Of a stretch of DNA of 64,000 nucleotides, positions 44,094-63,972 are shown in pieces (the first letter of the stretch is position 1; the number at the start of each line of letters is the position of its first letter). This stretch comes from Spirochaetota bacterium. Lineage in GTDB: Bacteria; Spirochaetota; UBA4802; UBA5550. The stretch spans positions 1,029 to 65,028 of the forward strand of contig DAISJZ010000005.1 of NCBI GenBank assembly GCA_036821145.1, read 5' to 3'. Under the pieces are notes generated by a model, which saw nothing but the letters and a program-made list of their open reading frames with translations, was not told where the DNA came from and did not search any database. The translations under genes were made by a program, and so were the position numbers.

Positions 44094-45908
44094 ATGCAAT
44101 ATGTAGTGCAGAATGAAAACGATTATTTCAGCCAGTCGGGACTCGCTACATTGGAACTCGATGAAAATTTAACAATAGTCAGATTTAATGATGAACTGAC
44201 CAGAATTACAGGTATTCCGGAACCTGTCCTTTCAGGTATGAAGTGGAATGATCTTGTTGCGTATTATAATCCCTGTACAGTCAGCGGAGAAAATTTATAC
44301 ATGAAATGGGGTATGAAAACTCCTACCGGTAAATTCTGGTGCTGGCAGAAATATAAAAACCCCCGGAGAATTTTTTCAGCTACAGTAAAGTATGACTGGA
44401 TACAAAGGGTCTATTTTGCCACTTTGTATGATATCAGTGATCAGATATCACCGGAGAAACTTGTAACTGATGGCGGGATAATTACCGGTGTTATTACAGA
44501 TTCTGTAAAAGGGGCTATGGCGTATCATGACAGTGATGGTATAATCAGATTTGCATCCCGCGAGATATGCAGTATGGCAGGGCTCAGCAGCAGGGATATT
44601 ATCGGCAGGCATATCAGAGATTTTTTTGATCACGGGCTTGTTGAGAAGTGGCTCTCTCTTATGAATAAAAAAAACTGTGAGCTTCCGGGTAATCTTGAAT
44701 TCAATACATCCGGAAGTCATAGTCATGTACAGGTTTTTCATTCAATAGCAACTCCAAGACTATTCATGAAAAAAGACGGTACTGTTGCGGGGTGTATGTT
44801 TATTTTTGCGGATATAACAGAGTTAAAGCACCATGAACGGAAACTGAAGATTTCTGATGAGAAATATTCCAAGGCGTTTCACGCCAGTCCCGCACCAAGT
44901 TCAATTACAACACTTAAAGACGGAAGATTTTTAGAAGTTAATGAAAGTTATGCGCGACTGGTGGGGTATTCAAAAGAGGAACTTATCGGTGAAACAACAA
45001 CCAGCATTAATTTTATAGTAAACAAAGTGGAAAGAGAAAAGTTTGTAAATGAACTGATGATAAACGGGAAATTACGTGATTATGAGACACAGGTTTATTC
45101 AAGAGTAAAAGGGATCCGGACGTTCTCCCTCTCCGCGGAGATAATTGAACTGCAGAGTGAAAAATGTATCATTCTTGTGGGATATGACGTTACTGATCAG
45201 ATCCGCCTTGAAAAGGAGGTCCTGACTATTACAGGCAGGGAAAGATACAAAATCGGACAATATCTCCATGATGATCTGGGTCAGCATATTGTGGGTATTG
45301 AAGCTATGTGTGCAATACTGGAAAACAGGATGAAAGCTAATAACAGCCCTGATGTCGATATGCTGACTGATATATCTGAATACCTGAGAGAAGCACATGA
45401 AAAAGCAAGGAATATGGCTGGAGGATTATGCCCTGTAAGGCTTGAAGAGAACGGCCTCAGTTCTGCTATTGAAGAGCTCTCCATTAAGATTTCAAAAATG
45501 TATAATATAAAGTGTGAGTATCGTAATTACAACTCGAACATTAAAATTTACAACAGTCAGATTGCAATTAATATGTATTATATTGTAAGGGAAGCAGTTA
45601 ATAATGCAATAAAACATGGTAAAGCGGGTACAATAGAGATAACATACTCATCAAGCGCAGACACTATTTTTATTCTTATTAGAGATGATGGTGATGGATT
45701 TGATATAGTGAAAAATGAATCATCAGGGATGGGGCTCAGCCTGATAAAATACAGAGCACGGGCAATAGGAGGTTCTGTAGATATTGAAAGTGAGCCCGGA
45801 TCGGGAACATCCGTTTTATTGAAGTTCCCGAGAATTAACAATAAAAAAAATGAATGGGACTGGAAGCAGAAAACCTATGAAGAAATCGCAAGTGTTTATC
45901 GTAGATGA
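44094..45908 (+). CDS. soluble multi-PAS sensor histidine kinase (HisKA_3 / NarX-DegS type), paralogue 1
   Basis: No hydrophobic TM segment. PAS-like block: DEKYSKAFHASPAPSSITTLKDGRFLEVNESYARLVGYSKEELIG. H-box: RYKIGQYLHDDLGQHIVG. ATPase N/G boxes: REAVNNAIKHGKA, DDGDGF, GMGLSLIKYRARAIGGS. Confidence 0.9.
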   Translation: MQYVVQNENDYFSQSGLATLELDENLTIVRFNDELTRITGIPEPVLSGMKWNDLVAYYNPCTVSGENLYMKWGMKTPTGKFWCWQKYKNPRRIFSATVKYDWIQRVYFATLYDISDQISPEKLVTDGGIITGVITDSVKGAMAYHDSDGIIRFASREICSMAGLSSRDIIGRHIRDFFDHGLVEKWLSLMNKKNCELPGNLEFNTSGSHSHVQVFHSIATPRLFMKKDGTVAGCMFIFADITELKHHERKLKISDEKYSKAFHASPAPSSITTLKDGRFLEVNESYARLVGYSKEELIGETTTSINFIVNKVEREKFVNELMINGKLRDYETQVYSRVKGIRTFSLSAEIIELQSEKCIILVGYDVTDQIRLEKEVLTITGRERYKIGQYLHDDLGQHIVGIEAMCAILENRMKANNSPDVDMLTDISEYLREAHEKARNMAGGLCPVRLEENGLSSAIEELSIKISKMYNIKCEYRNYNSNIKIYNSQIAINMYYIVREAVNNAIKHGKAGTIEITYSSSADTIFILIRDDGDGFDIVKNESSGMGLSLIKYRARAIGGSVDIESEPGSGTSVLLKFPRINNKKNEWDWKQKTYEEIASVYRR

Positions 45909-46563
45909 TCACCCCATTTTCCGCAAGGGGCTAAGACAGCTTATCAATGAAGAGAGTGACATGATAGTTTGTGATGAAGCTGAAGACGTATTCAGCGCCA
46001 CTACCAAGCTCAGGGGAATTAAACCTGACATAGCGATTGTTGACATTACACTGAATGATACCAGCGGCCTTGAACTTATAAAGTTCATAAATGACAACAG
46101 GATGAAAATACCGGTGCTTGTTCTCTCCATGCATGATGAAAAAATATTCGCGGAACGTGCTATAAAGTCCGGTGCAAGAGGCTATATTATGAAGCAGGAG
46201 ATGGCAAAACAGGTTGCGGGGGCGGTACGGCATGTGCTTTCCGGAAAGATATACCTCAGTGATACAATGAACGAACGGATGCTGAATTCCTTTTCTGCGA
46301 AAGAAGAGAAACCGGAAGAAATAAGCAACGATAATCCTGCGTCAATTCTTTCAGGGAGAGAGCTTGAGATATACATGCTTCTCGGGAAAGGGTACCAGAG
46401 AAAAGATATTGCCGGGATGCTGAACCTGAATATAAATACAATTGGAACCTACAGAGAAAAAATAAAAGAGAAGATGGCATTTGAATCTTCAAGCGCTCTT
46501 GTTGCCCACGCAATAGCATGGGTCAGGAAGCAGGAGAGCGGCAGCCCGGACGCACAGCTTTAA
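45877..46563 (+). CDS. LuxR/NarL-family response regulator, paralogue 1
   Basis: The REC domain has VFIVDDHPIFRKGL and DIAIVDITLNDTSGLEL. The GerE HTH is LSGRELEIYMLLGKGYQRKDIAGMLNLNINTIGTYREKIKEKM. The start at MKKSQ (45877) is chosen by homology with the two paralogues and overlaps the kinase gene by 32 nt. Confidence 0.9.
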   Translation: MKKSQVFIVDDHPIFRKGLRQLINEESDMIVCDEAEDVFSATTKLRGIKPDIAIVDITLNDTSGLELIKFINDNRMKIPVLVLSMHDEKIFAERAIKSGARGYIMKQEMAKQVAGAVRHVLSGKIYLSDTMNERMLNSFSAKEEKPEEISNDNPASILSGRELEIYMLLGKGYQRKDIAGMLNLNINTIGTYREKIKEKMAFESSSALVAHAIAWVRKQESGSPDAQL

Positions 46564-46603
46564 AAAAATACTCCTCTATTCATCACAGTAAAATCAATTT
46601 ATT

Positions 46604-46660
46604 GACCACAACGTGTAACTAAGTAGGGTTATTGCAGATATCTCCTGAAGATGCTATTAA
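46604..46660 (+). promoter_or_regulatory. candidate promoter with an upstream GACCACA box (acyl-CoA dehydrogenase 1a)
   Basis: GACCACA (46604-46610), 21 nt, TTGCAG (46632-46637), 17 nt, TATTAA (46655-46660). The ATG is at 46696. Confidence 0.5.
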
Positions 46661-46695: not shown

Positions 46696-47859
46696 ATGTT
46701 TGATTTAACAGAAGAACAATTGATGGTCAGAAATATGTGCCGTGAATTCGCTGAGAAGGAGTTAAGAGAACAGGCGGTAGAAATAGACAGAACCCACAGG
46801 TTCCCGCTTGAGACAACAAGAAAGCTCGGTGAGTTAGGTATAATGGGCGTTGTTTATGATGATAAATATGGCGGAGCCGGTATGGACTATGTATCATACG
46901 CTATAGCAGTTGAAGAGATATCAAGGGTCTGCGCATCATCAGGTGTAATAGTTTCAGCTCACAACTCACTCTGCGTTTCACCGATAAATTATTTCGGTAC
47001 AGAGGAGCAGAAGCAGAAGTATCTTCCTAAACTCTGCAAAGGTGAACATATCGGGGCTTTCGGCCTCACAGAACCAAACGCAGGTTCAGATTCAGGCGGA
47101 ACAAAAACAACGGCAGTTCCTGACGGCAAAGGTTTTACTCTCAACGGAAGCAAAAACTTTATTACTAACGGCGAATATGCCGATGTACATGTGACTCTTG
47201 CGGTTACTGATAAAAATGCATCAAAGAATAAAAATACATCTTTCTTTATTATTGAGAAAGGAGATCCGGGTTTCAGCGTAGGGAAAGTTGAGGATAAACT
47301 CGGAATATGCGCTTCATCCACCACTGAAATGATTTATGAAGACTGTAAGATTCCTGAAGGCAGGATGCTCGGCAAACCGGGTGAAGGTTTTAAAATCGCG
47401 ATGCACACACTTGACGGCGGACGTGTAGGTATTGCAGCACAGGCTCTCGGGATCGCCCAGGCTGCACTGGAAGAAGCTGCAAAATATGCCAATATGAGAG
47501 AGCAGTTCGGAGCTCCAATAGGAAAACTACAGGCAATACAGTGGATGATTGCTGATATGGCTACAGAGATTGAAGCATCAAGGCTTCTTGTATATCAGGC
47601 AGCGGCAATTCTTGATAAGAACGGTGCTAACAGAAGGCCTGCAAGTAAATACGCTGCAATGGCAAAACTCTACGCAGCTGAATGCGCACACAGATGTGCT
47701 CATAAATGTATACAGATACATGGCGGTTACGGCTATGTTAAGGATTATATTGCAGAAAGACTTTATAGAGATGCAAGAATTACTGAAATCTATGAAGGGA
47801 CATCAGAAGTACAGAGACTTGTTATTGCTGCTAATGTTCTTTCAGAGTTTGAAGGATAA
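46696..47859 (+). CDS. acyl-CoA dehydrogenase, butyryl-CoA dehydrogenase-like (lineage 1, copy a)
   Basis: MFDLTEEQ... start with RBS AGGAGGAG; the track ORF starts 45 nt upstream at 46651. Motifs: GAFGLTEPNAGSD, KNFITNG, GGRVGIAAQALGIAQ, YEGTSEVQRLVIA. Confidence 0.92.
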   Translation: MFDLTEEQLMVRNMCREFAEKELREQAVEIDRTHRFPLETTRKLGELGIMGVVYDDKYGGAGMDYVSYAIAVEEISRVCASSGVIVSAHNSLCVSPINYFGTEEQKQKYLPKLCKGEHIGAFGLTEPNAGSDSGGTKTTAVPDGKGFTLNGSKNFITNGEYADVHVTLAVTDKNASKNKNTSFFIIEKGDPGFSVGKVEDKLGICASSTTEMIYEDCKIPEGRMLGKPGEGFKIAMHTLDGGRVGIAAQALGIAQAALEEAAKYANMREQFGAPIGKLQAIQWMIADMATEIEASRLLVYQAAAILDKNGANRRPASKYAAMAKLYAAECAHRCAHKCIQIHGGYGYVKDYIAERLYRDARITEIYEGTSEVQRLVIAANVLSEFEG

Positions 47860-47899: not shown

Positions 47900-49186
47900 A
47901 TGAAAGAAGTGGTTATAGTAAGCGGTTCAAGGACATCAGTCGGAGCTTTCGGTGGCAGTCTGAAAGATGTATCAGCAATAGAGATGGGTTCTCTTGTAAT
48001 GAGAGAAGTATTCAGAAAAATTAATCTTAAACCTGTTGTTTCAGGAGAGCAGATTAGTATCTCACCTGATAAGCTTAAACACGCGGGCCAGCTTGAGCTG
48101 GAGAAAAAGGGATATAAATATGAAGCCGGGGCAAAAGAGATAACAGTAGATGAGACAGTAATGGGCTGTGTTCTCCAGGCGGCACAGGGGCAGAATCCCG
48201 GACGCCAGGCGGCAATCCACGCGGGTATTCCGAAAGAGGCGGCAGGCTGTTCAATAAACATAGTATGCGGTTCAGGACTGAAGGCAATAGCAATGGCAGC
48301 ACAATCAATTATGACAGGTCAGGCTGATGTAGTTGTTGCAGGCGGTATGGAGAGCATGAGTAACGCTCCTCTTGCTCTTAAAAAGGCAAGGTGGGGACAC
48401 AGGATGGAGCTCACCGGAACAGGCGATATCCACGACCTCATGGTTTATGACGGCCTTTATGAAATATTCAACGGATACCATATGGGTATAACAGCGGAGA
48501 ATATAGCAGAACTGTACGGTATAAGCAGGGAGGAGCAGGATAAGCTCGGTCTGATGTCACACCAGAGGGCTATGAATGCGATCAAAACAGGTCTCTTCAA
48601 GGATGAGATTGTGCCGGTAGTTATTTCATCAAGGAAAGGTGATATAATTGTAGATACAGATGAAAGGCCTATGGAGACAACACTTGAAAAGATGGCATCC
48701 ATGAAGCCTGCATTTAAAAAGGACGGAACAGTTACAGCGGGAAACGCTTCAGGAATAAATGACGGAGCAGCAGCGGTTCTCATGATGAGCGCTGACAAGG
48801 CAAAAGAGATGGGACTTGAGCCTATAGTAAAAATAAAATCTTTTGCCACAGGGGGAGTTGATCCCGCATACATGGGACTCGGCCCTGTACCTGCTGTGAG
48901 GAAAGCTTTAAAGCTCGCAGGTATGACAATAAAGGATCTGGATATGGTAGAGATTAACGAGGCATTCGCGTCCCAGGCAATAGGGTGTTTCAGGGAACTC
49001 GGTCTTGACAACGAATTTCCCAACCAGCTTGGAAGCGGGATTTCTCTTGGCCACCCGATTGGATGTACTGGCGCGAGGATGGCAGTAACAACAATGTACC
49101 AGATGAAGAGAAAGAATTTCTCAACCGGTATCGTCTCCATGTGTATAGGCGGCGGTATGGGTATGGCTATGATATTCGAAAGGTAG
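47900..49186 (+). CDS. acetyl-CoA C-acetyltransferase (thiolase II) with the same ~36-aa insertion, copy 2
   Basis: 428 aa, nearly identical to 41634..42920, including long runs of identical nucleotides. Confidence 0.92.
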   Translation: MKEVVIVSGSRTSVGAFGGSLKDVSAIEMGSLVMREVFRKINLKPVVSGEQISISPDKLKHAGQLELEKKGYKYEAGAKEITVDETVMGCVLQAAQGQNPGRQAAIHAGIPKEAAGCSINIVCGSGLKAIAMAAQSIMTGQADVVVAGGMESMSNAPLALKKARWGHRMELTGTGDIHDLMVYDGLYEIFNGYHMGITAENIAELYGISREEQDKLGLMSHQRAMNAIKTGLFKDEIVPVVISSRKGDIIVDTDERPMETTLEKMASMKPAFKKDGTVTAGNASGINDGAAAVLMMSADKAKEMGLEPIVKIKSFATGGVDPAYMGLGPVPAVRKALKLAGMTIKDLDMVEINEAFASQAIGCFRELGLDNEFPNQLGSGISLGHPIGCTGARMAVTTMYQMKRKNFSTGIVSMCIGGGMGMAMIFER

Positions 49187-49248
49187 AAACTGATGACAGT
49201 ATAAATATTTTTATCAGGATTCAAATTTCATTTTTGTAATAATTTAAA

Positions 49249-49287
49249 GTCTCTATCATGATTAATTATGGCAGAGACTTTTTTTTA
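49249..49287 (+). terminator. rho-independent terminator after thiolase copy 2
   Basis: AGTCTCT...AGAGACT stem with additional inner pairing, followed by eight T. Confidence 0.7.
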
Positions 49288-49388: not shown

Positions 49389-51194
49389 ATGAATAAAAAA
49401 TTTTTTAAAGAAAAAGATTTGATTACCCAGTCCGGGCTTGCAGCTCTGGTTCTTGATGATGATTTGAAAATTATTGAATTTAATGATGAACTGATTAATA
49501 TAACAGGTTTTTCAAGTGAGAAAATAAAAAATAAAAAATGGTACGACCTTATTAATTATGATTACCCCTTTACTCCTATAGACTCTATTCCTGATGTAAC
49601 TGAATGTGCCGCACCGCCCTCCGGGAAGTTCTGGTGCTCAATTAAAGATAAAATTCCGAAAAAACTTATCTCCGCAACTATTTCCTACGATCCAGAAAAG
49701 TCAATTTATTTCGCAACACTCTATGATATATCTGAGCAGGTTACACCTCAGCGGCTTGTTAATGATGGCGGGCTTCTTATCGGATCAATTGCAGACCACC
49801 TAAAAGGGGCAATGGCATTTCATGACAGCCGGGGAATTGTAAGATTTGCCTCCTCCGAAACATGCAGAATTGTCGGCTCAGGAAAAAAAGATATCATCGG
49901 GCACCATATAAATGAATTTTTTGACGAGAAGCTTGTTAATAAGTGGCTGATCCTTATGAATGAGAAGGCTGAAAGCGTTCCTCTGTATCTTGAGTTTATC
50001 AGTACAAGAAAGAAAGATAAAGTTTTTCATGTTATTGCAACACCCCGTCTGTTTTTTGATTACAACAGAAAAGTAATAGGTTGCATGTTTATCTTTACTG
50101 ATATAACAGAACTTAAAATGAATGAAGAGAGACTTCGGCTTTCTGATGAAAAATACTCAAAGGCGTTCCAGGCAAGTCCCGCTCCCAGTTCAATAACAAC
50201 ACTGGCTGAGGGCCGTTATATTGATGTTAATGAAAGCTATTGTGCATTTGTGGGTTACTCGAAAGAGGAACTTATCGGCAGAACATCAACTGATATCAAT
50301 TTTTTTAAATACAGGGATGACAGGAAAAGATTTGTTGCTGAGCTTGAATCAAAAGGTAAACTTCGTGATTATGAAACCCATGTTAATTCAAGGGTAAAGG
50401 GTTTGCGGACATTCTCACTCTCCGCCGAGCTGATCGAACTTCAGGGTGAGAAGTGTATCATCTGGGTCGGATATGATGTCACTGATGAGATAAGGCTTGA
50501 AAAAGAAGTCCTTGAGGCAACTGGAAGAGAGCGATACAACATCGGCCAGTATCTCCATGACGATCTGGGGCAGCACCTTGTGGGGGTGGAGGCAATGTGC
50601 TCTCTGCTGGAAAACCGGCTTAAAACTTCAGGGAATCCTGAGATTAAGCTTGCAGGGGAAATTCATGAATATATGAAAGAGGCCCTTGAAAAAACAAGGG
50701 GTGCAGCAAGGGGGCTTTGTCCTGTATCCCTTGAAGAGAACGGATTCAGTTTTGCAATCAGGGATCTGGCGTTACGGACAGAAAAAATGTTCGGTATAAA
50801 TTGTATTTTTCATAATTTTAATTTATTCGAAATAATTTACAACAGCCAGATAGCTATAAATATGTTTTACATTGTGCAGGAGGCTGTGAATAATGCAGTT
50901 AAACATGGCTCATGCAGTGAAATAATAATAACTTATTTTTCAAACGAGGATAACCTTTATATCTCTGTAGAGGATAACGGGAAAGGTTTTGATCCGAAGG
51001 AAATTGCTTCAAACGGCATGGGGCAGAGCCTGATGAAATACAGAGCCAGGGCAATCGGCGGAAGCCTTGAAGTTAATAGTGAACCGGGAAATGGTACTTA
51101 TATTCTTCTGACGTTCCCGAGAATTAATAATAAACAGACCGAATGGGACTGGAAACAGGTGAGCTATGAGGAAATCACAGATATTCATCGTTGA
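49389..51194 (+). CDS. soluble multi-PAS sensor histidine kinase (HisKA_3 type), paralogue 2
   Basis: Collinear with 44094..45908. Shared blocks are DEKYSKAFQASPAPSSITTL, KLRDYETH, RTFSLSAELIELQGEKCII, GQYLHDDLGQHLVG, YNSQIAINMFYIVQEAVNNAVKHG and KYRARAIGGS. Confidence 0.9.
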   Translation: MNKKFFKEKDLITQSGLAALVLDDDLKIIEFNDELINITGFSSEKIKNKKWYDLINYDYPFTPIDSIPDVTECAAPPSGKFWCSIKDKIPKKLISATISYDPEKSIYFATLYDISEQVTPQRLVNDGGLLIGSIADHLKGAMAFHDSRGIVRFASSETCRIVGSGKKDIIGHHINEFFDEKLVNKWLILMNEKAESVPLYLEFISTRKKDKVFHVIATPRLFFDYNRKVIGCMFIFTDITELKMNEERLRLSDEKYSKAFQASPAPSSITTLAEGRYIDVNESYCAFVGYSKEELIGRTSTDINFFKYRDDRKRFVAELESKGKLRDYETHVNSRVKGLRTFSLSAELIELQGEKCIIWVGYDVTDEIRLEKEVLEATGRERYNIGQYLHDDLGQHLVGVEAMCSLLENRLKTSGNPEIKLAGEIHEYMKEALEKTRGAARGLCPVSLEENGFSFAIRDLALRTEKMFGINCIFHNFNLFEIIYNSQIAINMFYIVQEAVNNAVKHGSCSEIIITYFSNEDNLYISVEDNGKGFDPKEIASNGMGQSLMKYRARAIGGSLEVNSEPGNGTYILLTFPRINNKQTEWDWKQVSYEEITDIHR

Positions 51195-51846
51195 GGATCA
51201 CCCTATCTTCAGAAAGGGGCTGATACAGCTTATTAATGAAGAGCCGGATATGGAGGTGTGCGGTGAAGCGGAGGATGTGTTCTCTGCTACAAAAAAGGTC
51301 AGGCAGCTCAATCCTGAGCTTGTAATTGCTGACATTACACTTAAAGATACCAGCGGACTGGAGCTGGTAAAATTTATTAATGACAACAATCTTAACATAC
51401 CTGTACTTGTTCTTTCAATGCATGATGAAAAGATATTCGCAGAGCGTGCGCTAAAGTCCGGGGCAAAGGGTTATATAATGAAGCAGGAGATGTCGGGTAA
51501 CGTAACTGCCGCAATCAGGCATGTTCTTGCAGGGAAGATATATGTAAGTGACGCCATTAATGACAGGATACTCAGCTCTTTAACCGGCCGTGCTGTTGAG
51601 GGTACTCCTCTTGAACTTGAAAAGGACCCTGCGGCAGTACTGACTGACAGGGAACTTGAGATATTCAGGATGATGGGTAAAGGCTACAGAAGAAACGAGA
51701 TAGGAAAAGCGCTGAATCTTAATGTGAATACAATAGGCACATACAGGGAGAGGATCAAAGAGAAACTTAATCTATCTTCATCCAATGAGCTCATGGCCAG
51801 AGCGATACTCTGGGTGCAGAAAGTTGAGGAGCAGGAGATCAAATAA
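51166..51846 (+). CDS. LuxR/NarL-family response regulator, paralogue 2
   Basis: Blocks IFIVEDHPIFRKGL, PVLVLSMHDEKIFAERALKSGAKGYIMKQEM and LNLNVNTIGTYRERIKEKL. It overlaps the kinase gene by 29 nt. Confidence 0.9.
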   Translation: MRKSQIFIVEDHPIFRKGLIQLINEEPDMEVCGEAEDVFSATKKVRQLNPELVIADITLKDTSGLELVKFINDNNLNIPVLVLSMHDEKIFAERALKSGAKGYIMKQEMSGNVTAAIRHVLAGKIYVSDAINDRILSSLTGRAVEGTPLELEKDPAAVLTDRELEIFRMMGKGYRRNEIGKALNLNVNTIGTYRERIKEKLNLSSSNELMARAILWVQKVEEQEIK

Positions 51847-53271: not shown

Positions 53272-53294
53272 AAGGCCGCTCATTGAGCGGCCTT
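53272..53294 (+). terminator. stem-loop after CoA-transferase copy 1
   Basis: AAGGCCGCTC-ATTG-AGCGGCCTT, flanked by an A-run upstream and by T-containing sequence downstream. Confidence 0.6.
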
Positions 53295-53408
53295 AAGTTT
53301 ATCAACAGAATTCCCCAGAAGGTTTCCAGGTTATTCTTATTATTAATATAATTAAAATTCGGTAAAATAGTGTTTTTTTATGGCAGATACTGGTGAAAAA
53401 AATGAATT

Positions 53409-53433
53409 AAAACCCTGCATAACGCAGGGTTTT
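53409..53433 (-). terminator. rho-independent terminator of the minus-strand acyl-CoA dehydrogenase
   Basis: CCCTGC-ATAAC-GCAGGG stem. On the minus strand it is followed by TTTTAATTCATTTTTTT. It lies 10 nt past the stop of 53443..54645. Confidence 0.7.
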
Positions 53434-53442
53434 AAATTTATG

Positions 53443-54645: not shown

Positions 54646-54894
54646 TTTTTGACCGCCGATGTTGTAAATCCGTCCGGTCAGAGTTTAAATCAGGGTATAT
54701 CTGTTTCCTTTTTCCTCTGAAAAGAAGGCTGCTGCTGAATTATTTGACCAGCCGGTCAAAAATGCAACAATGCGCCATTTTATTTTTAATCATATTGATG
54801 GTAATTTACAGAAAATCCGGTTTTTGGGAAGAGTAGAATTAACCTCACGGGTAGTTGATTTTATTTATTCATACTACATGAAAATAATTAATTC

Positions 54895-54951
54895 GACCAC
54901 AGGATAATAGATTATCAGACTATTGAAGTATAGTGAATTTCAGTGTAGATA
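54895..54951 (+). promoter_or_regulatory. candidate promoter with an upstream GACCACA box (acyl-CoA dehydrogenase 1b)
   Basis: GACCACA (54895-54901), 21 nt, TTGAAG (54923-54928), 17 nt, TAGATA (54946-54951). The ATG is at 55002. Confidence 0.4.
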
Positions 54952-56165: not shown

Positions 56166-56209
56166 ATGAAATTTCTGCGCTGCCTTCTATGTTTCCGCCG
56201 GGGCATTTT

Positions 56210-56233
56210 CCGGCTGCTGTTTTCGGCAGCCGG
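56210..56233 (+). terminator. GC-rich stem-loop without a T-tract (possible weak terminator or RNA structure)
   Basis: CCGGCTGC-TGTTTTCG-GCAGCCGG, 45 nt after the dehydrogenase stop. No U-run follows it. Confidence 0.35.
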
Positions 56234-58125: not shown

Positions 58126-58789
58126 TGATCACCCTATATTCAGGAAAGGGCTGGGTCAGCTGATCAATGAAGAAGTGGATTTGGAGGTCTGCGGAGAAGC
58201 TGAAGATTTTTTTTCAGCTATTCAGAAAATAAAAAATCTTAAACCGGATCTGGCCATTGTGGATATAACACTTAAAGATACAAGCGGTCTGGAGCTGATT
58301 AAGTATATAATGGATAACGGGATTAATATCCCGACTCTGGTGCTGTCAATGCATGATGAAAAAATTTTTGCAGAGCGGGCACTGAAGAGCGGGGCAAAAG
58401 GATATATTATGAAACAGGAGATGTCTGATAATGTTACAGTAGCTATACGACAGCTCCTCGCAGGTAAAATATATATAAGCGAAGCTATGAACGAAAGGAT
58501 GCTCAATAATTTTCTGGGGAGAGGAGGTGATTCAGGAACAAAAAGCAGCGTGCCGGATCCCGCGAAGCTTCTTACAGGGCGGGAGCTTGAAATTTTCAGG
58601 CTTATGGGGCGCGGGTATAAACGTAATGAAATCGGAAGAGCTTTGAATCTTAATGTTAACACAATCGGGACTTACCGGGAGAGAATTAAGGAAAAACTTG
58701 ATTTGAACTCATCAGTTGACCTTCTTGCACAGGCAATAATGTGGGTAAGAAATACTGAGGAGAGAGAAATAATCGCTGAGCATGAGTGA
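58097..58789 (+). CDS. LuxR/NarL-family response regulator, paralogue 3
   Basis: Blocks ILIVDDHPIFRKGL, PTLVLSMHDEKIFAERALKSGAKGYIMKQEM and LNLNVNTIGTYRERIKEKL. It overlaps the kinase gene by 29 nt. Confidence 0.9.
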   Translation: MKKSRILIVDDHPIFRKGLGQLINEEVDLEVCGEAEDFFSAIQKIKNLKPDLAIVDITLKDTSGLELIKYIMDNGINIPTLVLSMHDEKIFAERALKSGAKGYIMKQEMSDNVTVAIRQLLAGKIYISEAMNERMLNNFLGRGGDSGTKSSVPDPAKLLTGRELEIFRLMGRGYKRNEIGRALNLNVNTIGTYRERIKEKLDLNSSVDLLAQAIMWVRNTEEREIIAEHE

Positions 58790-58852: not shown

Positions 58853-60202
58853 ATGTCTACTATCTGGCGTAATCATTATCAGGATAAACTGAAAAGTGCT
58901 GATGAAGCTGCTAAGGTTGTTAAATCAGGTGATGTGGTGTTCATGGGAGAGTTTATTCAGGGAGTTGATGCTCTTGATGCTGCTCTTGCAAAAAGAAAGG
59001 AGGATCTGAAAGATGTTATCCTCATTACAACGACAAGGGCAAAACCGCTTAAGTGTGTTGAGGCTGACCCGAAACGTGAAGCTTTTACCTGGGAGGACTG
59101 GCATTTCTCCGGTATGGCGAGGAAGTATTTTGATCAGGGGCTTGTAAACTATATTCCGTTCACCTATCATCAGGGGCCGAGAATAATTGTTAAGTACGGT
59201 AAGGTGGATGTTGTTTTTATCCAGGTAACTCCGATGGATGATAAAGGTTTTTTTAATTTATCAACCTCAAACTCGCTTGGCTATGCGTACTGTAAAAAAG
59301 CATCTAAAGTTATAGTTGAGATTAATACAACAATACCAAGATGTCTCGGCGGAGCATCCGAATCAATACATATCTCCGAAATTGATATGATTGTTGAAGG
59401 GCCAAACACACCTCTGATTGAGTTACCTGCAGCAAAGGCAACAGAAGCAGATAAAGGTATTGCAAAACACGTAATGACACTTATAGAGGACGGAGCCACA
59501 CTGCAGCTTGGGATCGGCGGTCTTCCAAACATTGTGGGTTCAATGATAGCCCAAAGTGATCTTAAAGACCTTGGTGTACACACGGAGATGCTTGCTGACT
59601 CATACGTGGATATGTATGAATCAGGAAAAATTTCAGGGAGAAGAAAAGTTATAGATAAAGGGAAGATGGTTTACACATTCGCTATGGGTTCAAAGAAACT
59701 GTATGAGTTTCTTGATAACAATCCGATTTGTGCATCATATCCCGTGAGCTATACAAATGATCCTCGTGTTATAAGCGTGAATGATAAAGTAATGGCAATA
59801 AATAACGCGATAGAAGTAGATCTTTATTCACAGGTATCATCGGAATCAAGCGGTTCAAGACATATAACAGGAACAGGGGGGCAGCTTGATTTTATATTTG
59901 GAGCATTTCAGTCAAGGGGCGGAAAAGGTCTTATATGCATAAGTTCCACTTTTACTGATAAAGAGGGGAATCTTCAGTCAAGAATAGTACCAACACTCGC
60001 TCCTGGGACAATAGTTACATGTCCAAGGTCAATTGTTCACTACATAGTAACAGAGAACGGTATAGCCCAGATGAAAGGCAAGTCAACATGGGAAAGAGCT
60101 GAAGCACTTATAGAGATAGCACATCCGCAGTTTAAAGATGAGCTTATTAAAGAAGCGCAGAAGCTTAATATCTGGAGAAAGAGCAGCAAGCTCGCTGTAT
60201 AA
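58853..60202 (+). CDS. acetyl-CoA hydrolase/transferase-family CoA-transferase, copy 2
   Basis: 449 aa, collinear with and highly similar to 51892..53241. It starts 63 nt after the response-regulator stop. Confidence 0.85.
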   Translation: MSTIWRNHYQDKLKSADEAAKVVKSGDVVFMGEFIQGVDALDAALAKRKEDLKDVILITTTRAKPLKCVEADPKREAFTWEDWHFSGMARKYFDQGLVNYIPFTYHQGPRIIVKYGKVDVVFIQVTPMDDKGFFNLSTSNSLGYAYCKKASKVIVEINTTIPRCLGGASESIHISEIDMIVEGPNTPLIELPAAKATEADKGIAKHVMTLIEDGATLQLGIGGLPNIVGSMIAQSDLKDLGVHTEMLADSYVDMYESGKISGRRKVIDKGKMVYTFAMGSKKLYEFLDNNPICASYPVSYTNDPRVISVNDKVMAINNAIEVDLYSQVSSESSGSRHITGTGGQLDFIFGAFQSRGGKGLICISSTFTDKEGNLQSRIVPTLAPGTIVTCPRSIVHYIVTENGIAQMKGKSTWERAEALIEIAHPQFKDELIKEAQKLNIWRKSSKLAV

Positions 60203-60221: not shown

Positions 60222-60258
60222 CATGAAAAAGCCGTCTGTACCAGGCGGCTTTTTCATG
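60222..60258 (+). terminator. rho-independent terminator after CoA-transferase copy 2
   Basis: GAAAAAGCCG ... CGGCTTTTTC stem with a T-rich 3' arm. Confidence 0.78.
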
Positions 60259-60300
60259 TACATGTAAGATTATTACAGGCTGGTTTCAATTATGTATTGA

Positions 60301-60335
60301 ATAAAAAATCCCCCCGGTAAATATCCGGAGGGATT
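60301..60335 (-). terminator. rho-independent terminator of the thiolase/dehydrogenase minus-strand operon
   Basis: AATCCCCCCGG ... CCGGAGGGATT imperfect stem. On the minus strand it is followed by TTTTTTAT. Confidence 0.65.
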
Positions 60336-60385
60336 TATATATATCAGAAACCGCCGTTAAACGGCTGCTGTGTGTAAATTAATTC

Positions 60386-61579
60386 TTAGAATGTATATGT
60401 ATACTTACCGTCTTTTGTAAGATATTTACCTATAACCATTCTTTGAACCTGTACAGTCCCTTCGAAGATCTGCATGATTTTTGCGTCTCTCATGAATTTT
60501 TCAACAGGATATTCTTTTACATATCCGTATCCGCCGAAAATCTGAACAGCATCAACTGCGTTTTTCATGGCGCAATCTGCAGCATACATTTTAGCCATAT
60601 TGGAAAGCATTTTAAACGGGAGGCCGTTATCCTGCGCCCACGCCGCCTTCTGATACAGAAGTCTTGATGCTTCAGTAGTGGTAGCCATATCTGCAAGCAT
60701 AAATTGTATCGCCTGAAATGAAGAGATCGGTTTTCCGAACTGTTTTCTTTCATTAGCATATTCAATAGCAGCATTTAATGCTCCAGTTGAAATACCTGCT
60801 GCCATAGCAGCGATGGCTGTTCTTGAGTAATCAAGAGTTTCCATAAGTATCGGTGTGCCTTTCCCTTCTGCTCCGAGACACATCCAGCCTGGAACTCTTA
60901 CATCGTCAAAAATAACCTCAGTTGTACTTGTTGTCCTTATACCGAGTTTTTCCTCTTTTTTTCCGATTTTAACACCGGGGAAGTCTTTGTCTACCATGAA
61001 GCAGCATATACCCTTATTGCCAAGGGTTCTGTCTGTTGTTGCAAAAACAGTAAACTGTTTCGCAAATCCGCCGTTGGTTATAAACTGTTTAGTTCCGTTA
61101 AGAATCCAGTCATTTCCGTCTTTTGTACATTTTGTTGACATGCCGAGAGCGTCTGAACCTGCGCCTGGTTCAGTTAAACAGAAGCCGCACATTGCTCCTT
61201 CCATCATCCTTCCAAACCACCATTTCTTCTGCTCATCGTTTGCGCCGATCATAACAGGGTCAGTAGCAAGAAGAGAAGAGGCAACAACAGTTGTTGCTAT
61301 ACCTGCATCTCTCTGTGCGAGTTCATCAACTACTGTATATCTTGTAAAATTATCGAGACCCTGGCCGTCATATTCTGCCGGAACTCCAATATTTGTTAAA
61401 CCAAGATCGTGCATTTTTTTAAGAACATCCATTGGAACATGATCGTTAATATCCCATTCACCGGCAAAGGGTTTAATTTCTTTGTCAGCAAATTCCGCTG
61501 TCATCTGCCTGATCATTTCCTGTTCTTCGGTAAGTTTGAAACCGAAACTGCTTTCCTGTCCGCTTATTACTGTATTCAT
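60386..61579 (-). CDS. acyl-CoA dehydrogenase (lineage 2, copy b)
   Basis: 397 aa, collinear with and highly similar to 53443..54645. It has a strong RBS (AGGAGG) and lies 22 nt downstream of the thiolase gene. Confidence 0.9.
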   Translation of the reverse strand: MNTVISGQESSFGFKLTEEQEMIRQMTAEFADKEIKPFAGEWDINDHVPMDVLKKMHDLGLTNIGVPAEYDGQGLDNFTRYTVVDELAQRDAGIATTVVASSLLATDPVMIGANDEQKKWWFGRMMEGAMCGFCLTEPGAGSDALGMSTKCTKDGNDWILNGTKQFITNGGFAKQFTVFATTDRTLGNKGICCFMVDKDFPGVKIGKKEEKLGIRTTSTTEVIFDDVRVPGWMCLGAEGKGTPILMETLDYSRTAIAAMAAGISTGALNAAIEYANERKQFGKPISSFQAIQFMLADMATTTEASRLLYQKAAWAQDNGLPFKMLSNMAKMYAADCAMKNAVDAVQIFGGYGYVKEYPVEKFMRDAKIMQIFEGTVQVQRMVIGKYLTKDGKYTYTF

Positions 61580-61601: not shown

Positions 61602-62804
61602 TTATATTTTTGTTGTCCAGAGTGATGCCATTGCCGGGCCTGTTCCTACGCATAGAGAAGCACCGCCATTTGAGTAGCCCTTTCTTTTCATTTCATAAAG
61701 AAGTGTTACAATAATTCTGATCCCTGTACATCCAATGGGGTGACCTAATGCAATACCTGATCCGTAATGGTTAACATTATCGCGTGAAATTTCGATATTG
61801 TAGTCTTTTTTCAGTTTTCTTTCGCATCCAATAAACTGCGGAGCGAACGCTTCGTTGATTTCCCAGTAATCGATATCAGATGCTTTAAGGCCGGCTTCAT
61901 TCAGGCACTGAGGTATTGCAACTGCAGGACCGATCCCCATAACTTGCGGGTCAACTCCTACGTCAACTATGTTAATAAGTTTGGCGAGAGGTTTGAGGCC
62001 TAATTCCTCAGCTTTCTTTTTAGACATAAGAACAAGTGCTGCGGCTCCATCATTAATTCCTGAAGCATTTGCTGCAGTAACAACTCCACCGTCAGGTTTA
62101 AAAGCAGGTTTTAATTTACTCATAGCTTCAAGGTTTGCATCTGGTATAAAGTGTTCGTCTTTGGAAAAGTATGTTGTACCTTTTTTGCTTTTAATTTCAA
62201 CGGGTATTATTTCCTCATCGAAAACCCCTGAATTAACTGCATTTGCCGCTCTCTGATGACTCATTAATGCAAGCTGATCGCATTCTTCCCTGGTGATGTT
62301 ATACTCTTTTGCGACATTTTCTGCAGTGAGGCCCATGTGTCCGGGAACAAGCGCATCATAAAGAGCATCATGTAAAAGAGCATCAACAAGTTCTCCGCTC
62401 CCCATTCTGTATCCGGTTCGTCCATTCGGAATCATGTATGGGACACGGGTCATGTTCTCAACTCCGACTGTCAGTGCTATTTCAGTTTTACCAAGCATTA
62501 TTTTATGTGCAGCAATTTCAACGGCCCGCATAGCTGATGAACAGTTCTGGTTTACAACCATAGCAGCGCTTCTGTGGGGGAGCCCGCAAGCAAGACCTAC
62601 AGCCCTGGCCGGGAGAGAATCCTGCATATGCTGATAAACCTGTCCCATAACAATTTCATCTATTGTTGAAGGATCAACTCCTGCTCTTTTTATAGCCTCT
62701 TTTCCAACTGTTACGGCGAGATGTCTGGCTGTAACATCCTTTAAACTGCCAAGAAATTTTCCTATTGGTGTTCTACACGCTCCAACAACTACTACTTCGT
62801 TCAT
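61602..62804 (-). CDS. acetyl-CoA C-acyltransferase (thiolase) of conventional length, no insertion
   Basis: MNEVVVVGACRTPIGKF start with GGAGG 7 nt upstream; the track ORF extends to 62864. Motifs: NQNCSSAMRA, NASGINDGAAA, GHPIGCTGIR, CVGTGPAMA. Confidence 0.9.
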   Translation of the reverse strand: MNEVVVVGACRTPIGKFLGSLKDVTARHLAVTVGKEAIKRAGVDPSTIDEIVMGQVYQHMQDSLPARAVGLACGLPHRSAAMVVNQNCSSAMRAVEIAAHKIMLGKTEIALTVGVENMTRVPYMIPNGRTGYRMGSGELVDALLHDALYDALVPGHMGLTAENVAKEYNITREECDQLALMSHQRAANAVNSGVFDEEIIPVEIKSKKGTTYFSKDEHFIPDANLEAMSKLKPAFKPDGGVVTAANASGINDGAAALVLMSKKKAEELGLKPLAKLINIVDVGVDPQVMGIGPAVAIPQCLNEAGLKASDIDYWEINEAFAPQFIGCERKLKKDYNIEISRDNVNHYGSGIALGHPIGCTGIRIIVTLLYEMKRKGYSNGGASLCVGTGPAMASLWTTKI

Positions 62805-63174
62805 ACAGAGCCTCCGTAAATTTTTAAAGTACACCGGAAATTTTTTACCTTCTTTCTGAGGCATAAGCCTTCATGCTGAATTCTGTCAACATATAAAAAT
62901 TTTTTAGATAAAAAAATATAACACTTGTTATGTTATGGTGATTATTTTGTGGTTAGACCGATTATTGGTGTAATTAAAAAAGCTACAAAATTAAATTGGG
63001 CTGTAGTTATTAAAGGTATAAAACGTTACTATAAAAAAAATTAATGTAACCACGTTAGTAAAGACGAAGGGGTTATTGTAATAAATTTAATAATAGTTTA
63101 TTTCTTGAATCAACACCGGATACCTTCCCGTTTAACTCGTTAAACGGATTAATTAAAATAGCGTGAGGCTGATT

Positions 63175-63972
63175 ATGAATATGAAAGCTGAAGTGCAATT
63201 CGAAAACCTGAAGTACAGAAAAGAGGGACATATCGGCATACTTACATTGTCAAGACCGAAGTCTCTTAATGCTCTCAACGCGAAACTTCTCCATGAACTT
63301 GGAGATGCAGTAGACATGATCAATTCTGATGAAAGCGTTCATGTGCTTATTATTACGGGTGACGGCAAAGCATTTGTTGCCGGAGCTGATATCCCGGAAA
63401 TGAAGGATTATAATAGTGAAGAGGGCCGTGAATGGGGCGAACTAGGTTCTTCTGTTTTTAAAAAAATTGAACTTATGAAAATCCCGACCATTGCGGCAGT
63501 GAATGGATTTGCCCTTGGAGGCGGATGTGAACTGGCAATGAGCTGTGATATCAGGATCGCAAGCGATAACGCTAAGTTCGGGCAGCCTGAAGTGGGACTT
63601 GGAATAACACCGGGTTATTCAGGTTGTGTAAGGCTTCCAAGACTTATAGGCCCGGCAAAGGCTAAGGAACTTATTTTTACAGGTGATTATATTTCTGCAT
63701 CAGAAGCCGAGAGACTTGGCCTTGTTAACAAAGTAGTATCCGTAGAGGAGCTTATGAATGTTGCAATTGAACTTGCAGGAAAAATTTCATCTAAAGCACA
63801 GATTGCTGTCAGATATTCAAAGCTCGCAATAAACAAGGGAATAGAAACTGATATTAACACCGCAATTGCCTTCGAAAACCAGATCTTTGCACTCTGTTTT
63901 GCAACAGAAGACCAGAAGGAAGGGATGAATGCTTTTGTTGAAAAAAGAAGCCCTCATTTCAAAACAAAATAA
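63175..63972 (+). CDS. short-chain enoyl-CoA hydratase (crotonase), copy 2
   Basis: Highly similar to 42986..43768 (GDGKAFVAGADIPEM, AAVNGFALGGGCELAMSCDIRIAS, EDQKEGMNAFVEKR). I prefer the ATG at 63175, preceded by GTGAGG, over the GTG at 63163. Confidence 0.9.
   Translation: MNMKAEVQFENLKYRKEGHIGILTLSRPKSLNALNAKLLHELGDAVDMINSDESVHVLIITGDGKAFVAGADIPEMKDYNSEEGREWGELGSSVFKKIELMKIPTIAAVNGFALGGGCELAMSCDIRIASDNAKFGQPEVGLGITPGYSGCVRLPRLIGPAKAKELIFTGDYISASEAERLGLVNKVVSVEELMNVAIELAGKISSKAQIAVRYSKLAINKGIETDINTAIAFENQIFALCFATEDQKEGMNAFVEKRSPHFKTK

Follow-up and report, generated by a model that had tools for sequence, protein, structure and literature searches.

Three soluble multi-PAS two-component systems adjoining short-chain acyl-CoA genes in an uncultured Spirochaetota genome

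The window analyzed here (the whole 64,000 nucleotide stretch of DNA) encodes three kinase/response regulator pairs that are probably anciently diverged members of one cytoplasmic two-component family controlling short-chain acyl-CoA genes, of the kind employed in butyrate/crotonate-type beta-oxidation or its reverse, in uncultured Spirochaetota. The family is real and uncharacterized, a relative of known catabolic two-component systems that represents no new principle.

Architecture of the kinase/regulator pairs

The initial annotation placed the pairs at 44094-46563, 49389-51846 and 56317-58789, and the Pfam domain content bears this out; the start given to kinase 3 (56317) also agrees with its homologues.

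44094..45908, + strand: kinase 1 (HK1; NCBI HOP29521.1), soluble, with PAS-N, PAS-A, PAS-B, HisKA_3 and HATPase_c domains
45877..46563, + strand: regulator 1 (RR1), REC and GerE; first 32 nt shared with the 3' end of the kinase 1 gene
49389..51194, + strand: kinase 2 (HK2; NCBI HOP29525.1), H-box His390, N-box and G-boxes intact
51166..51846, + strand: regulator 2 (RR2), REC (Asp56) and GerE; first 29 nt shared with the 3' end of the kinase 2 gene
56317..58125, + strand: kinase 3 (HK3; NCBI HOP29530.1)
58097..58789, + strand: regulator 3 (RR3), REC and GerE

All three kinases contain two clear PAS domains (residues ~135-245 and ~255-365), a HisKA_3 domain (~383-448; PF07730, 33-34 bits against a cut-off of 24) and an HATPase_c domain (PF02518) by Pfam. 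A further, divergent PAS domain occupies residues 1-128, as shown by profile-profile alignment with PAS-B (hhalign, 97% probability over 95 columns), and an AlphaFold2 model of kinase 2 residues 1-372 (pLDDT 79) displays three PAS folds, giving substance to the long N-terminal PAS-like region noticed earlier. The sequence LHDDL(G/A)Q is invariant at the H-box, that of the HisKA_3 class being HDxxxQ, and the kinase core is nearest to DesK and VraS, the best PDB sequence matches. Kyte-Doolittle hydropathy revealed no membrane segment in any of the three, the peak value (1.07, 19-residue window) being well under the membrane-helix level, as the initial annotation had anticipated. As judged from their sequences, the three proteins are soluble multi-PAS HisKA_3 kinases with intact catalytic motifs.

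The three regulators match Response_reg (PF00072) and GerE (PF00196) above cut-offs, and the receiver pocket residues E10-D11, D56, S84 and K106 can be read in regulator 2. The pairs thus have both the HisKA_3 plus HATPase_c kinase and the receiver pocket plus GerE/LuxR helix-turn-helix regulator of the HisKA_3/NarL class (NarX-NarL, DesK-DesR, LiaS-LiaR). In the mechanism we propose, the three PAS domains of each soluble kinase would precede a DesK/NarX-class (HisKA_3) transmitter, the family-specific PAS-N and PAS-A would read an intracellular cue, presumably an acid of the pathway or its CoA thioester, and the kinase would autophosphorylate within the H-box (on His390 in the case of kinase 2) and hand the phosphate on to the translationally coupled NarL-type regulator, at Asp56. 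That a cytoplasmic PAS domain can sense an acyl chain has a precedent in RpfS of Xanthomonas, where the N-terminal PAS domain of a soluble histidine kinase binds the fatty acid DSF (PMC4504480); the likeness is one of description, RpfS being a quorum-sensing signal receptor rather than a catabolic regulator.

Pairwise identity is 58-60% among the kinases and 63-71% among the regulators. By domain, the kinases are 39-48% identical in PAS-N, 51-56% in PAS-A and 73-76% in PAS-B, the last being a generic S-box PAS without a feature marking a ligand pocket. The N-terminal sensor domains are therefore the most diverged, which is compatible with differing inputs; chain-length specificity and a cytoplasmic ligand are guesses. 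This divergence favors a reading that we regard as possible yet doubtful, namely that the pairs form three insulated circuits, each tuned to an acid or acyl-CoA chain length of its own and controlling only the genes adjoining it. Against insulation, the DHp helices are 58-64% identical, so that cross-phosphorylation is possible, and the GerE recognition helix is the same in regulators 1-3. This helix, LNLN(V/I)NT(I/V)GTYRE, is common to the regulators of the family and differs in the Acidobacteriota outgroup. Its identity makes it probable that all three sensors feed into a common set of operators, and leaves co-transcription and synteny as the sole ground for assigning one gene set to one pair.

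The proteins nearest to the sensor region in structure and sequence (FixL, MmoS, NifL, DosP and PpsR) raise another alternative, that the PAS domains bind FAD or haem, like those of NifL, MmoS and FixL, and report the redox or energy state, tuning thermodynamically delicate butyrate oxidation or fermentation without sensing a substrate. Seven cysteine positions kept across the family (83, 159, 232, 356, 404, 444 and 472) and the origin of the organisms in anaerobic digester and subsurface metagenomes, as told by MAG names, would suit it. However, these neighbours are generic multi-PAS sensors whose 13-16% identity reflects the PAS fold as such, the cysteines are scattered, with no CxxC or NreB-like four-cysteine cluster on reading the kinase sequences, and a single redox cue is harder to square with three diverged sensor copies. 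We consider redox sensing unlikely. NreB/NreC of Staphylococcus resembles the present pairs in joining a cytoplasmic PAS-HisKA_3 kinase to a GerE-type regulator and controls nitrate respiration, but NreB has one PAS domain, not three, and four cysteines that hold an oxygen-labile [4Fe-4S] cluster. NreB was also absent among NCBIfam matches at E<=1e-10, in a library that may have no dedicated model.

Acyl-CoA genes and candidate operators

The genes surrounding the pairs, with their predicted terminators, are the following.

41634..42920, + strand: thiolase 1, 94% identical to thiolase 2 (Pfam Thiolase_N/C)
42986..43768, + strand: crotonase/short-chain enoyl-CoA hydratase 1 (Pfam ECH_1)
43799..43832, + strand: terminator-like hairpin and T-run closing the thiolase 1-crotonase 1 unit ahead of kinase 1 (read by eye)
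46696..47859, + strand: acyl-CoA dehydrogenase (ACAD) a, lineage 1, Bcd/AcrC-like (Pfam, NCBIfam)
47900..49186, + strand: thiolase 2 (Pfam)
49246..49286, + strand: weaker terminator-like hairpin with a large loop and T-run, 5' of kinase 2 (by eye; unlisted in the scan)
51892..53241, + strand: CoA-transferase 1, butyryl-CoA:acetate CoA-transferase-like, 449 aa, AcetylCoA_hydro family (Pfam)
53272..53435, no strand: two strong hairpin terminators (53272-53294 and 53407-53435; scan) between CoA-transferase 1 and dehydrogenase c, whose genes converge
53443..54645, - strand: acyl-CoA dehydrogenase c, lineage 2 (Pfam)
55002..56165, + strand: acyl-CoA dehydrogenase b, 93% identical to a (Pfam)
56197..56214, + strand: terminator-like hairpin 3' of dehydrogenase b (scan)
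58853..60202, + strand: CoA-transferase 2, 449 aa, 78% identical to 1, 63 bp past regulator 3 (Pfam)
60226..60336, no strand: terminator-like hairpins between convergent units, 60306-60336 (scan) and 60226-60254 (by eye, unlisted in the scan)
60386..61579, - strand: acyl-CoA dehydrogenase d, 88% identical to c (Pfam)
61602..62804, - strand: thiolase 3 (Pfam); ORF opens at 62864
63163..63972, + strand: crotonase 2; ORF opens at GTG 63163

Pfam supports the gene order described earlier, in which pair 1 leads to a dehydrogenase and a thiolase, pairs 2 and 3 each lead to a CoA-transferase and then a reverse-strand dehydrogenase, and the block is bounded on both sides by thiolase and crotonase genes (41634-43768 and 61602-63972). 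The genes it named hold, yet that description overlooked dehydrogenase b, the forward gene lying between modules 2 and 3 (55002-56165). The terminator scan, which began at 44000 and hence does not list the 43799..43832 hairpin, found no terminator-like site in the regulator-to-enzyme gaps, in line with the claim that acyl-CoA genes follow each pair without an intervening terminator. CoA-transferase 1, 45 bp past regulator 2 across a gap in which the scan found no terminator and the PWM no operator, is probably co-transcribed with pair 2; in the proposed mechanism pairs 2 and 3 would each be co-transcribed with one CoA-transferase. That the CoA-transferases and the ACAD lineages differ by module is a further point for insulated circuits.

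The CoA-transferases belong to the same Pfam family as the TIGR03948 enzyme, and their full-length scores against that model (558 bits for CoA-transferase 1 and 568 for CoA-transferase 2) lie below the equivalog cut-off of 674.8, so that a substrate is not assignable from sequence. Crotonase 1 scores 385 bits with NCBIfam PRK05809, slightly below the cut-off of 394. For dehydrogenase a, the ATG at 46696, with its AGGAGG ribosome-binding site, is the most likely start, in preference to the ORF opening (46651); the orthologue in relative L092 has 387 aa. Thiolase 3 probably starts at 62804, and crotonase 2 likely at an internal Met a few codons past GTG 63163. In relative L083 the crotonase 2 counterpart is followed by a 3-hydroxyacyl-CoA dehydrogenase gene.

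Inspection of the promoter regions gave the following elements.

46581..46610, + strand: candidate operator O1, CATCACA-N16-GACCACA, then a conserved G..TAT.G block
54744..54759, no strand: palindrome TTGACCAGCCGGTCAA (GACC-N4-GGTC) in the divergent promoter region, kept in 3 close relatives with varying spacer
54872..54901, + strand: candidate operator O2, TACTACA-N16-GACCACA
62948..62975, - strand: operator-like variant 5' of thiolase 3, AATTACA-N14-AACCACA (GACCACA in L083)

The direct repeat YAYYACA-N16-GACCACA occurs twice in the window (0.10 expected), and these sites score ~36 bits by PWM (O1 35.5), the runner-up in the window reaching 10.5. Both precede the 93%-identical dehydrogenase genes a and b and may have arisen by duplication of a single ancestral promoter. 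The motif was also found in the loci of 10 other distinct relatives, on the gene's own strand and at most 180 bp ahead of an ACAD, thiolase or atoD-like gene, and nowhere else in the 1.85 Mb searched; ~1.4-1.5 Mb of outgroup loci contain none. Aligned promoters have in common the two half-sites, an A-rich spacer and the G..TAT.G block. The strict motif is absent in L084, L090, L104 and L107; the regulator helix of L084 is identical to that of the family and that of L090 slightly different. Inverted repeats are the commoner binding sites of GerE-type regulators; even so, the direct repeat is the likely binding site of the present regulators.

According to the proposed mechanism, the phosphorylated regulator would bind this repeat, its promoter-proximal half placed where a -35 box would lie, a position suggested by the distance to the conserved TAT-containing block, and would activate the dehydrogenase and thiolase promoters. 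Pair 1 would thus precede the operator-bearing promoter of dehydrogenase a-thiolase 2, while O2 would drive dehydrogenase b. Motif and PWM scans of the window found no operator ahead of any kinase or CoA-transferase gene. A single operator type, present only at lineage-1 ACAD promoters, argues against insulated circuits, and together with the shared helix it tells against the initial annotation, in which each pair is wired into its own gene set.

Conservation of the linkage among relatives

Full-length relatives with readable flanks (42-94% identity) all come from Spirochaetota/Leptospirales metagenome genomes, and acyl-CoA genes adjoin the kinase gene in all but one. At 62-64% identity, L081, L082 and L098 have a single pair followed by thiolase-ACAD-crotonase-CoA-transferase; at 52%, L086 has an orphan kinase, with no adjoining regulator gene, followed by CoA-transferase-crotonase-thiolase-ACAD; and at 45%, L093 has the order ACAD-thiolase-CoA-transferase-crotonase-kinase-regulator. 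L084 and L088 (43-46%) are arranged as kinase-regulator-atoD-atoA-atoE-like genes and L090 (34%) as kinase-regulator-CoA-transferase, and Syntrophaceae/Smithella loci (31-36% over the C-terminal part only) as kinase-regulator-acyl-CoA ligase. As controls, the 10 kb neighbourhoods of ~55 Acidobacteriota/Verrucomicrobiota PAS-HisKA_3/LuxR pairs contained no acyl-CoA gene, save one thiolase ~9 kb off (L014). The linkage to acyl-CoA genes, on which the initial annotation had staked its proposal, is thus conserved beyond this genome.

It is very unlikely that the pairs are mere syntenic passengers of a metabolic island and control unrelated genes. The whole block is common to most high-identity loci, and two loci have other neighbours: L001 (64%) lacks acyl-CoA genes over the 10 kb downstream and has no more than a 4HBT-family thioesterase gene directly before the kinase gene, and L094 (37%) has glycyl-radical enzyme, ligase and rnf genes. 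However, the adjacency survives rearranged contexts down to 34% identity and across non-homologous CoA-transferase types (AtoDA-like and AcetylCoA_hydro), the outgroup pairs do not display it, and the motif tracks the family. By these comparisons of gene order, linkage between kinase and CoA-ester genes exceeds local synteny.

Each paralogue also forms its own orthologue group and keeps its own neighbours in 5/5, 5/5 and 4/4 loci, as insulated circuits would have it, but many of the supporting loci are related genomes with conserved synteny, mostly having the whole 20-kb block. In L083, the pair 2 CoA-transferase has decayed to a 34-aa remnant beside an intact kinase and regulator, suggesting that the pair serves more than that one gene.

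Relation to known catabolic systems

CrbS, MxtR and MctS are membrane kinases that sense through a transporter-like domain, unlike the soluble kinases described here. The CrbS/CrbR, MxtR/ErdR and MctS/MctR systems are nonetheless similar in tying a LuxR/NarL-type regulator to short carboxylic acid activation, through control of acetyl-CoA synthetase (bioRxiv 10.1101/2020.07.04.188060; NCBIfam names). Among named NCBIfam models, MctS scores best or nearly best for kinase 2, and MctR for regulator 2, but the scores (MctS 83 against a cut-off of 700, MctR 124 against 300, ErdR 48 against 390) fall far short of membership.

AtoS is a HisKA-class (PF00512) kinase anchored in the membrane and AtoC a sigma-54 (NtrC-type) activator, whereas the present kinases have no hydrophobic segment and a HisKA_3 DHp, and the regulators consist of REC and GerE only, with no sigma-54 AAA+ domain. 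The NCBIfam AtoS model reaches 58 bits against a cut-off of 646 and covers one PAS domain only. AtoSC is thus a functional analogue, not a homologue: in Escherichia coli it activates the adjacent atoDAEB genes (CoA-transferase, short-chain fatty-acid transporter and thiolase) for short-chain fatty acids (PMC3118216). The likeness lies in adjoining CoA-transferase and thiolase genes for short-chain acids, an adjacency seen here in sequence alone, and L084 and L088 follow the ato order exactly.

TdiS/TdiR of Azoarcus/Aromatoleum comprises a tandem-PAS kinase with a single transmitter and a NarL/FixJ-type HTH regulator, and TdiSR, like Tcs2/Tcr2, adjoins and activates catabolic operons including a beta-oxidation-like pathway (PMC5874301). 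The present pairs share with TdiSR/TodST a soluble PAS kinase and a NarL/FixJ-type regulator beside a catabolic operon, a resemblance of design only. The TdiSR substrates are aromatic and TdiR is proposed to recognize a palindrome (GGTGTTCGCACC) (PMC5874301), in contrast to the direct repeat, three PAS domains and HisKA_3 DHp found here. AtoSC and TdiSR contradict the earlier view that fatty-acid/butyrate regulators are all one-component (PMC3118216, PMC5874301); two-component control of such pathways is known from both systems. The TdiSR inducer is benzylsuccinate, a pathway intermediate rather than the substrate, and the ethylbenzene cluster of Aromatoleum holds the paralogous systems Tcs1 and Tcs2 (PMC5874301).

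Gene content and predicted transcription units of the acyl-CoA block

Three kinase/regulator pairs lie at the positions reported in the initial annotation, embedded in a block of acyl-CoA genes.

Genes of the acyl-CoA block (window positions, strand; enzyme assignments from Pfam)
41634-42920, +, thiolase 1
42986-43768, +, crotonase 1
44094-46563, +, kinase 1 and regulator 1
46696-47859, +, dehydrogenase a (acyl-CoA dehydrogenase, lineage 1; start corrected)
47900-49186, +, thiolase 2
49389-51846, +, kinase 2 and regulator 2
51892-53241, +, CoA-transferase 1
53443-54645, -, dehydrogenase c (lineage 2)
55002-56165, +, dehydrogenase b (lineage 1; overlooked in the initial annotation)
56317-58789, +, kinase 3 and regulator 3
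58853-60202, +, CoA-transferase 2
60386-61579, -, dehydrogenase d (lineage 2)
61602-62804, -, thiolase 3 (start corrected)
63163-63972, +, crotonase 2

Several mechanically called ORFs open too far upstream. That of dehydrogenase a begins at 46651, 15 codons too early, its true start probably being the ATG at 46696, which follows AGGAGG and matches a 387-aa orthologue. The same applies to thiolase 3 (62864, likely 62804) and kinase 3 (56272, corrected to 56317), and the start of crotonase 2 at 63163 is probably also too early, with an internal Met a few codons further in.

The enzyme genes are themselves paralogous (dehydrogenases a/b 93% identity, c/d 88%, a versus c 42%; thiolases 1/2 94%; CoA-transferases 78%; crotonases 73%). 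In NCBIfam the CoA-transferases are nearest to butyryl-CoA:acetate CoA-transferase (558-568 bits against a cut-off of 675) and the dehydrogenases to clostridial AcrC/Bcd-type enzymes, all of them under the equivalog cut-offs, so that substrates cannot be assigned. Since no electron-transfer flavoprotein genes occur within the window, it does not discriminate between butyrate oxidation and butyrate formation.

As previously proposed, no terminator-like site was detected by scanning the gaps between regulators and enzyme genes. Terminator-like hairpins found in the scan separate the downstream modules, and visual inspection added hairpins with T-runs before kinases 1 and 2 and behind CoA-transferase 2. 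Every regulator start codon falls within the final codons of its kinase gene (overlap of 29-32 nt), implying translational coupling. A sigma-70 promoter scan was discarded, its count being no higher than in shuffled controls.

Immediately before the block comes a sigma-54 activator containing CBS and PAS domains (32994-35117). After it come a 480-aa protein of the HpaB-family kind to which 4-hydroxybutyryl-CoA dehydratase belongs (35604-37046) and a third AcetylCoA_hydro-family CoA-transferase (37336-38637). This order also precedes a kinase-1-type pair in locus L092 of a relative, and in part in L088, and the island seems to have a second, sigma-54-controlled route into crotonyl-CoA. Between this CoA-transferase and thiolase 1 (38686-41413) are three ORFs (481, 240 and 126 aa) without Pfam match; genes of like size and position in L092 and L088 likewise lack one. 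Elsewhere in the window are another crotonase-family gene, far from the main block (4054-4836, - strand), and a lone N6-adenine DNA methyltransferase of 648 aa (21177-23123), whose specificity domains are Eco57I-like and TaqI_C.

A soluble PAS kinase family linked to acyl-CoA genes

The domains assigned earlier to the pairs are borne out by Pfam: each kinase has two clear PAS domains (PAS-A, PAS-B), HisKA_3 and HATPase_c, and each regulator has Response_reg and GerE. The kinases are indeed soluble, as the maximum 19-residue hydropathy across the three (1.07) leaves no membrane helix. Their first 128 residues give faint Pfam matches only, and correspond to a third, divergent PAS domain (PAS-N) by hhalign profile-profile comparison (97% probability against PAS-B). 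An AlphaFold2 model of kinase 2 residues 1-372 (mean pLDDT 79) contains PAS folds at 18-113, 141-238 and 267-363. Its top Foldseek matches in the PDB are PpsR and FixL (TM-score 0.72-0.74 over the target), MmoS, NifL and DosP, generic multi-PAS proteins at 13-16% identity; these matches bear out the fold and do not allow the ligand to be deduced. The H-box LHDDL(G/A)Q, N-box and G-boxes are intact in the kinases, and regulator 2 retains E10-D11, D56, S84 and K106. Pairwise identity is 58-60% among kinases and 63-71% among regulators. The kinases are deposited as HOP29521.1, HOP29525.1 and HOP29530.1 (kinases 1-3), with no name other than "PAS domain S-box protein [Spirochaetota bacterium]".

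Of 53 family members, at least 45 retain Cys at each of seven positions (83, 159, 232, 356, 404, 444 and 472 of kinase 2). These residues are spread roughly one per domain and form no CxxC motif; they could confer redox sensitivity or merely mirror anaerobe composition. Past the ATPase domain, all family kinases carry a conserved C-terminal tail, ..NN.K.EWDWK...YEE.. (45850-45908, 51140-51194 and 58070-58125), which is missing from matches in the outgroup (Acidobacteriota/Verrucomicrobiota), these stopping near residue 577. The Y-E-E codons of the tail contain the regulator ATG, which is 8-20 nt downstream of the EWDWK codons; judging from this arrangement, conservation of the tail may partly be due to an embedded ribosome-binding or translational-coupling signal.

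Homologues spanning the whole kinase were found in Spirochaetota/Leptospirales metagenome genomes only. Linkage to acyl-CoA genes, whose absence among orthologues had been named in the initial annotation as the point that would count against it, is conserved in these relatives.

Gene neighbourhoods of family loci (locus; identity to window kinases; gene order)
L081, L082, L098; 62-64%; single pair, then thiolase-dehydrogenase-crotonase-CoA-transferase
L086; 52%; orphan kinase without adjacent regulator, then CoA-transferase-crotonase-thiolase-dehydrogenase
L093; 45%; dehydrogenase-thiolase-transferase-crotonase, then pair
L084, L088; 43-46%; pair, then atoD-atoA-atoE-like genes
L090; 34%; pair, then CoA-transferase
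Syntrophaceae/Smithella; 31-36%, C-terminal part only; pair, then acyl-CoA ligase

The atoD-atoA-atoE-like set of L084 and L088 represents a different CoA-transferase family together with a short-chain fatty-acid transporter. A metagenome scan recovered 14 more family loci, with acyl-CoA-type neighbours in all those having usable flanks. About 55 PAS-HisKA_3/LuxR pairs of Acidobacteriota/Verrucomicrobiota recovered by the same scan served as a control, and no such gene occurred within 10 kb of them, the sole exception being one thiolase 9 kb away. Within the family the exceptions are L001 (64%), where the downstream genes are unrelated and the upstream side offers only a 4HBT-family thioesterase gene, and L094 (37%), which adjoins a glycyl-radical enzyme, a phenylacetate-CoA-ligase-like gene and rnf genes. 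The linkage between the pair and acyl-CoA genes is real and conserved.

The L094 member (GCA_964512685.1) lies between the rnf operon and a glycyl-radical enzyme cluster comprising a PFL-like large subunit, a 4-hydroxyphenylacetate-decarboxylase-type small subunit, an activase, an MFS transporter and a CoA ligase. The same assembly holds L086 and L093, indicating that the pair has multiplied in a second lineage. The Syntrophaceae/Smithella loci (L012, L015, L026, L027, L028 and L043) encode shorter PAS-HisKA_3 kinases, similar over the C-terminal two thirds, with LuxR-type regulators; an AMP-dependent acyl-CoA ligase gene comes after each pair, and L015, L026 and L043 have a dehydrogenase gene as well. 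They may constitute a sister family in syntrophic fatty-acid degraders.

A candidate operator and a shared recognition helix

When regulator-to-target gaps were compared between genomes, a direct repeat emerged, YAYYACA-N16-GACCACA, its spacer rich in A. The window contains exactly two such candidate operators, before dehydrogenase a (46581-46610) and dehydrogenase b (54872-54901), against 0.10 expected by chance; a weight matrix scores them at 35.5 and 36.2 bits, the next-best window site reaching 10.5. In 1.85 Mb of fetched loci, with A or G allowed at the first base of the second half-site, the motif was found in 14 loci, or 10 distinct places once duplicate contigs were merged. All sites fall in family loci, on the strand of the downstream gene and no more than 180 bp upstream of a dehydrogenase, thiolase or atoD-like gene, and the motif is absent from all outgroup loci fetched. 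A G..TAT.G block is conserved about 17 nt downstream of the repeat; if this is the -10 region, GACCACA would occupy the position of the -35 box, a placement typical of activators that replace a weak -35.

Thiolase 3 is preceded by a conserved variant whose half-sites are N14 apart. With the weight matrix, no site rose above background in front of the kinase genes, the CoA-transferases, thiolase 1 or the 4-hydroxybutyryl-CoA dehydratase-like gene. As no operator was found in the 45- and 63-bp gaps before the CoA-transferases, their co-transcription with kinase and regulator is the simplest reading.

Regulators 1-3 and the rest of the family share one GerE recognition helix, LNLN(V/I)NT(I/V)GTYRE(R/K)IKEK, which differs in the Acidobacteriota outgroup. 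It is thus likely that all three regulators recognise one and the same half-site, and common promoters may be the point at which the three sensors converge. The shared helix partly contradicts the earlier proposal of three separately wired, chain-length-specific circuits, which is not established. Several paralogous sensors feeding one promoter type would make a testable case.

Other sequence signals were also considered. Shared 10-mers among window intergenic regions were of no use in such AT-rich DNA, and only the comparison between genomes brought out the operator. The region separating the divergent genes of dehydrogenases c and b contains a perfect palindrome, TTGACCAGCCGGTCAA (54744-54759), kept with a different spacer as GACC-N4-GGTC in L003, L004 and L083, all close relatives. 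GACC-N4-GGTC was rejected as a family operator, being conserved at one orthologous position only and not enriched in family loci. GACC is common to the palindrome and the operator half-site, and the palindrome may act as a second binding site, either for the same regulator or for a different one.

Relation to known systems, sensor divergence and possible ligands

The premise that fatty-acid and butyrate regulators are exclusively one-component was incorrect, given several two-component precedents. For short-chain acids, atoDAEB is activated by AtoSC (PMC3118216); in TdiSR, which activates the bss and beta-oxidation-like bbs operons, a tandem-PAS kinase is teamed with a NarL/FixJ regulator, and paralogous systems occur within one cluster in Aromatoleum (PMC5874301); the soluble PAS kinase RpfS binds a fatty acid (PMC4504480); and CrbSR-type systems control acetyl-CoA synthetase (bioRxiv 10.1101/2020.07.04.188060). 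Soluble PAS kinases are already established as two-component regulators of CoA-dependent catabolism, and no principle is overturned. The family belongs neither to AtoSC, from which it differs in kinase and regulator class, nor to MctSR/CrbSR, its NCBIfam scores being far under the cut-offs. Membership of NreBC and NreB-like Fe-S sensing were likewise rejected, since the family kinases have no Cys cluster. No description of the family was found in the open-access literature; it is uncharacterised, follows a well-known design and now has a predicted operator.

Spirochaetes are abundant in digesters and subsurface sediments and, to our knowledge, almost nothing is known of how short-chain fatty-acid turnover is regulated in uncultured anaerobes, these included. 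A conserved sensor family with a predicted operator offers a handle for reading metatranscriptomes, and candidate parts for butyrate or acyl-CoA biosensors, AtoSC having already been used as an acetoacetate biosensor (PMC7618054).

In the mechanism that we consider most likely, a cytoplasmic cue would be read by PAS-N/PAS-A, the HisKA_3 kinase would phosphorylate its coupled NarL-type regulator, and the latter would bind the direct repeat and activate the dehydrogenase and thiolase promoters. Speculatively, the CoA-transferase made alongside the sensor would convert incoming acid to acyl-CoA, the actual inducer, by analogy with TdiSR, where an intermediate (benzylsuccinate) and not the substrate induces (PMC5874301). 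A bolder version, which we regard as improbable, would make the kinases direct CoA-thioester receptors and the CoA-transferases signal generators: each PAS-N/PAS-A module would bind the acyl-CoA generated by the transferase co-transcribed with it, and three channels of different acyl specificity would be summed at the shared operator to switch on common dehydrogenase/thiolase machinery. No histidine kinase with a CoA-thioester ligand was found in a search of the open-access literature, and acyl-CoA, if it were the ligand, would be a new ligand class for PAS kinases.

Divergence among the paralogues is highest in PAS-N (39-48% identity) and PAS-A (51-56%) and lowest in PAS-B (73-76%). An exhaustive representative search with residues 1-372 identified PAS-B as a generic S-box PAS and PAS-N plus PAS-A as confined to the family; it was otherwise uninformative, being swamped by giant multi-PAS proteins matching PAS-B. 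A sensor-only search (residues 1-250) returned only two fragments and nothing on other output domains. Both linkage and motif are still present with relatives lacking PAS-N (492 aa, L088).

The paralogues are old: kinases 1, 2 and 3 each define an orthologue group (77-91%, 74-92% and 79-94% identity, respectively), next to a fourth, "single-copy" group at 62-65%. Each of the three groups keeps its own neighbours (5/5, 5/5 and 4/4 loci, not independent since most share the whole block). In L083 (3203-3558), the CoA-transferase following the kinase-2-type pair has decayed to a 34-aa C-terminal remnant while kinase and regulator are intact; the pair must therefore serve something besides that gene.
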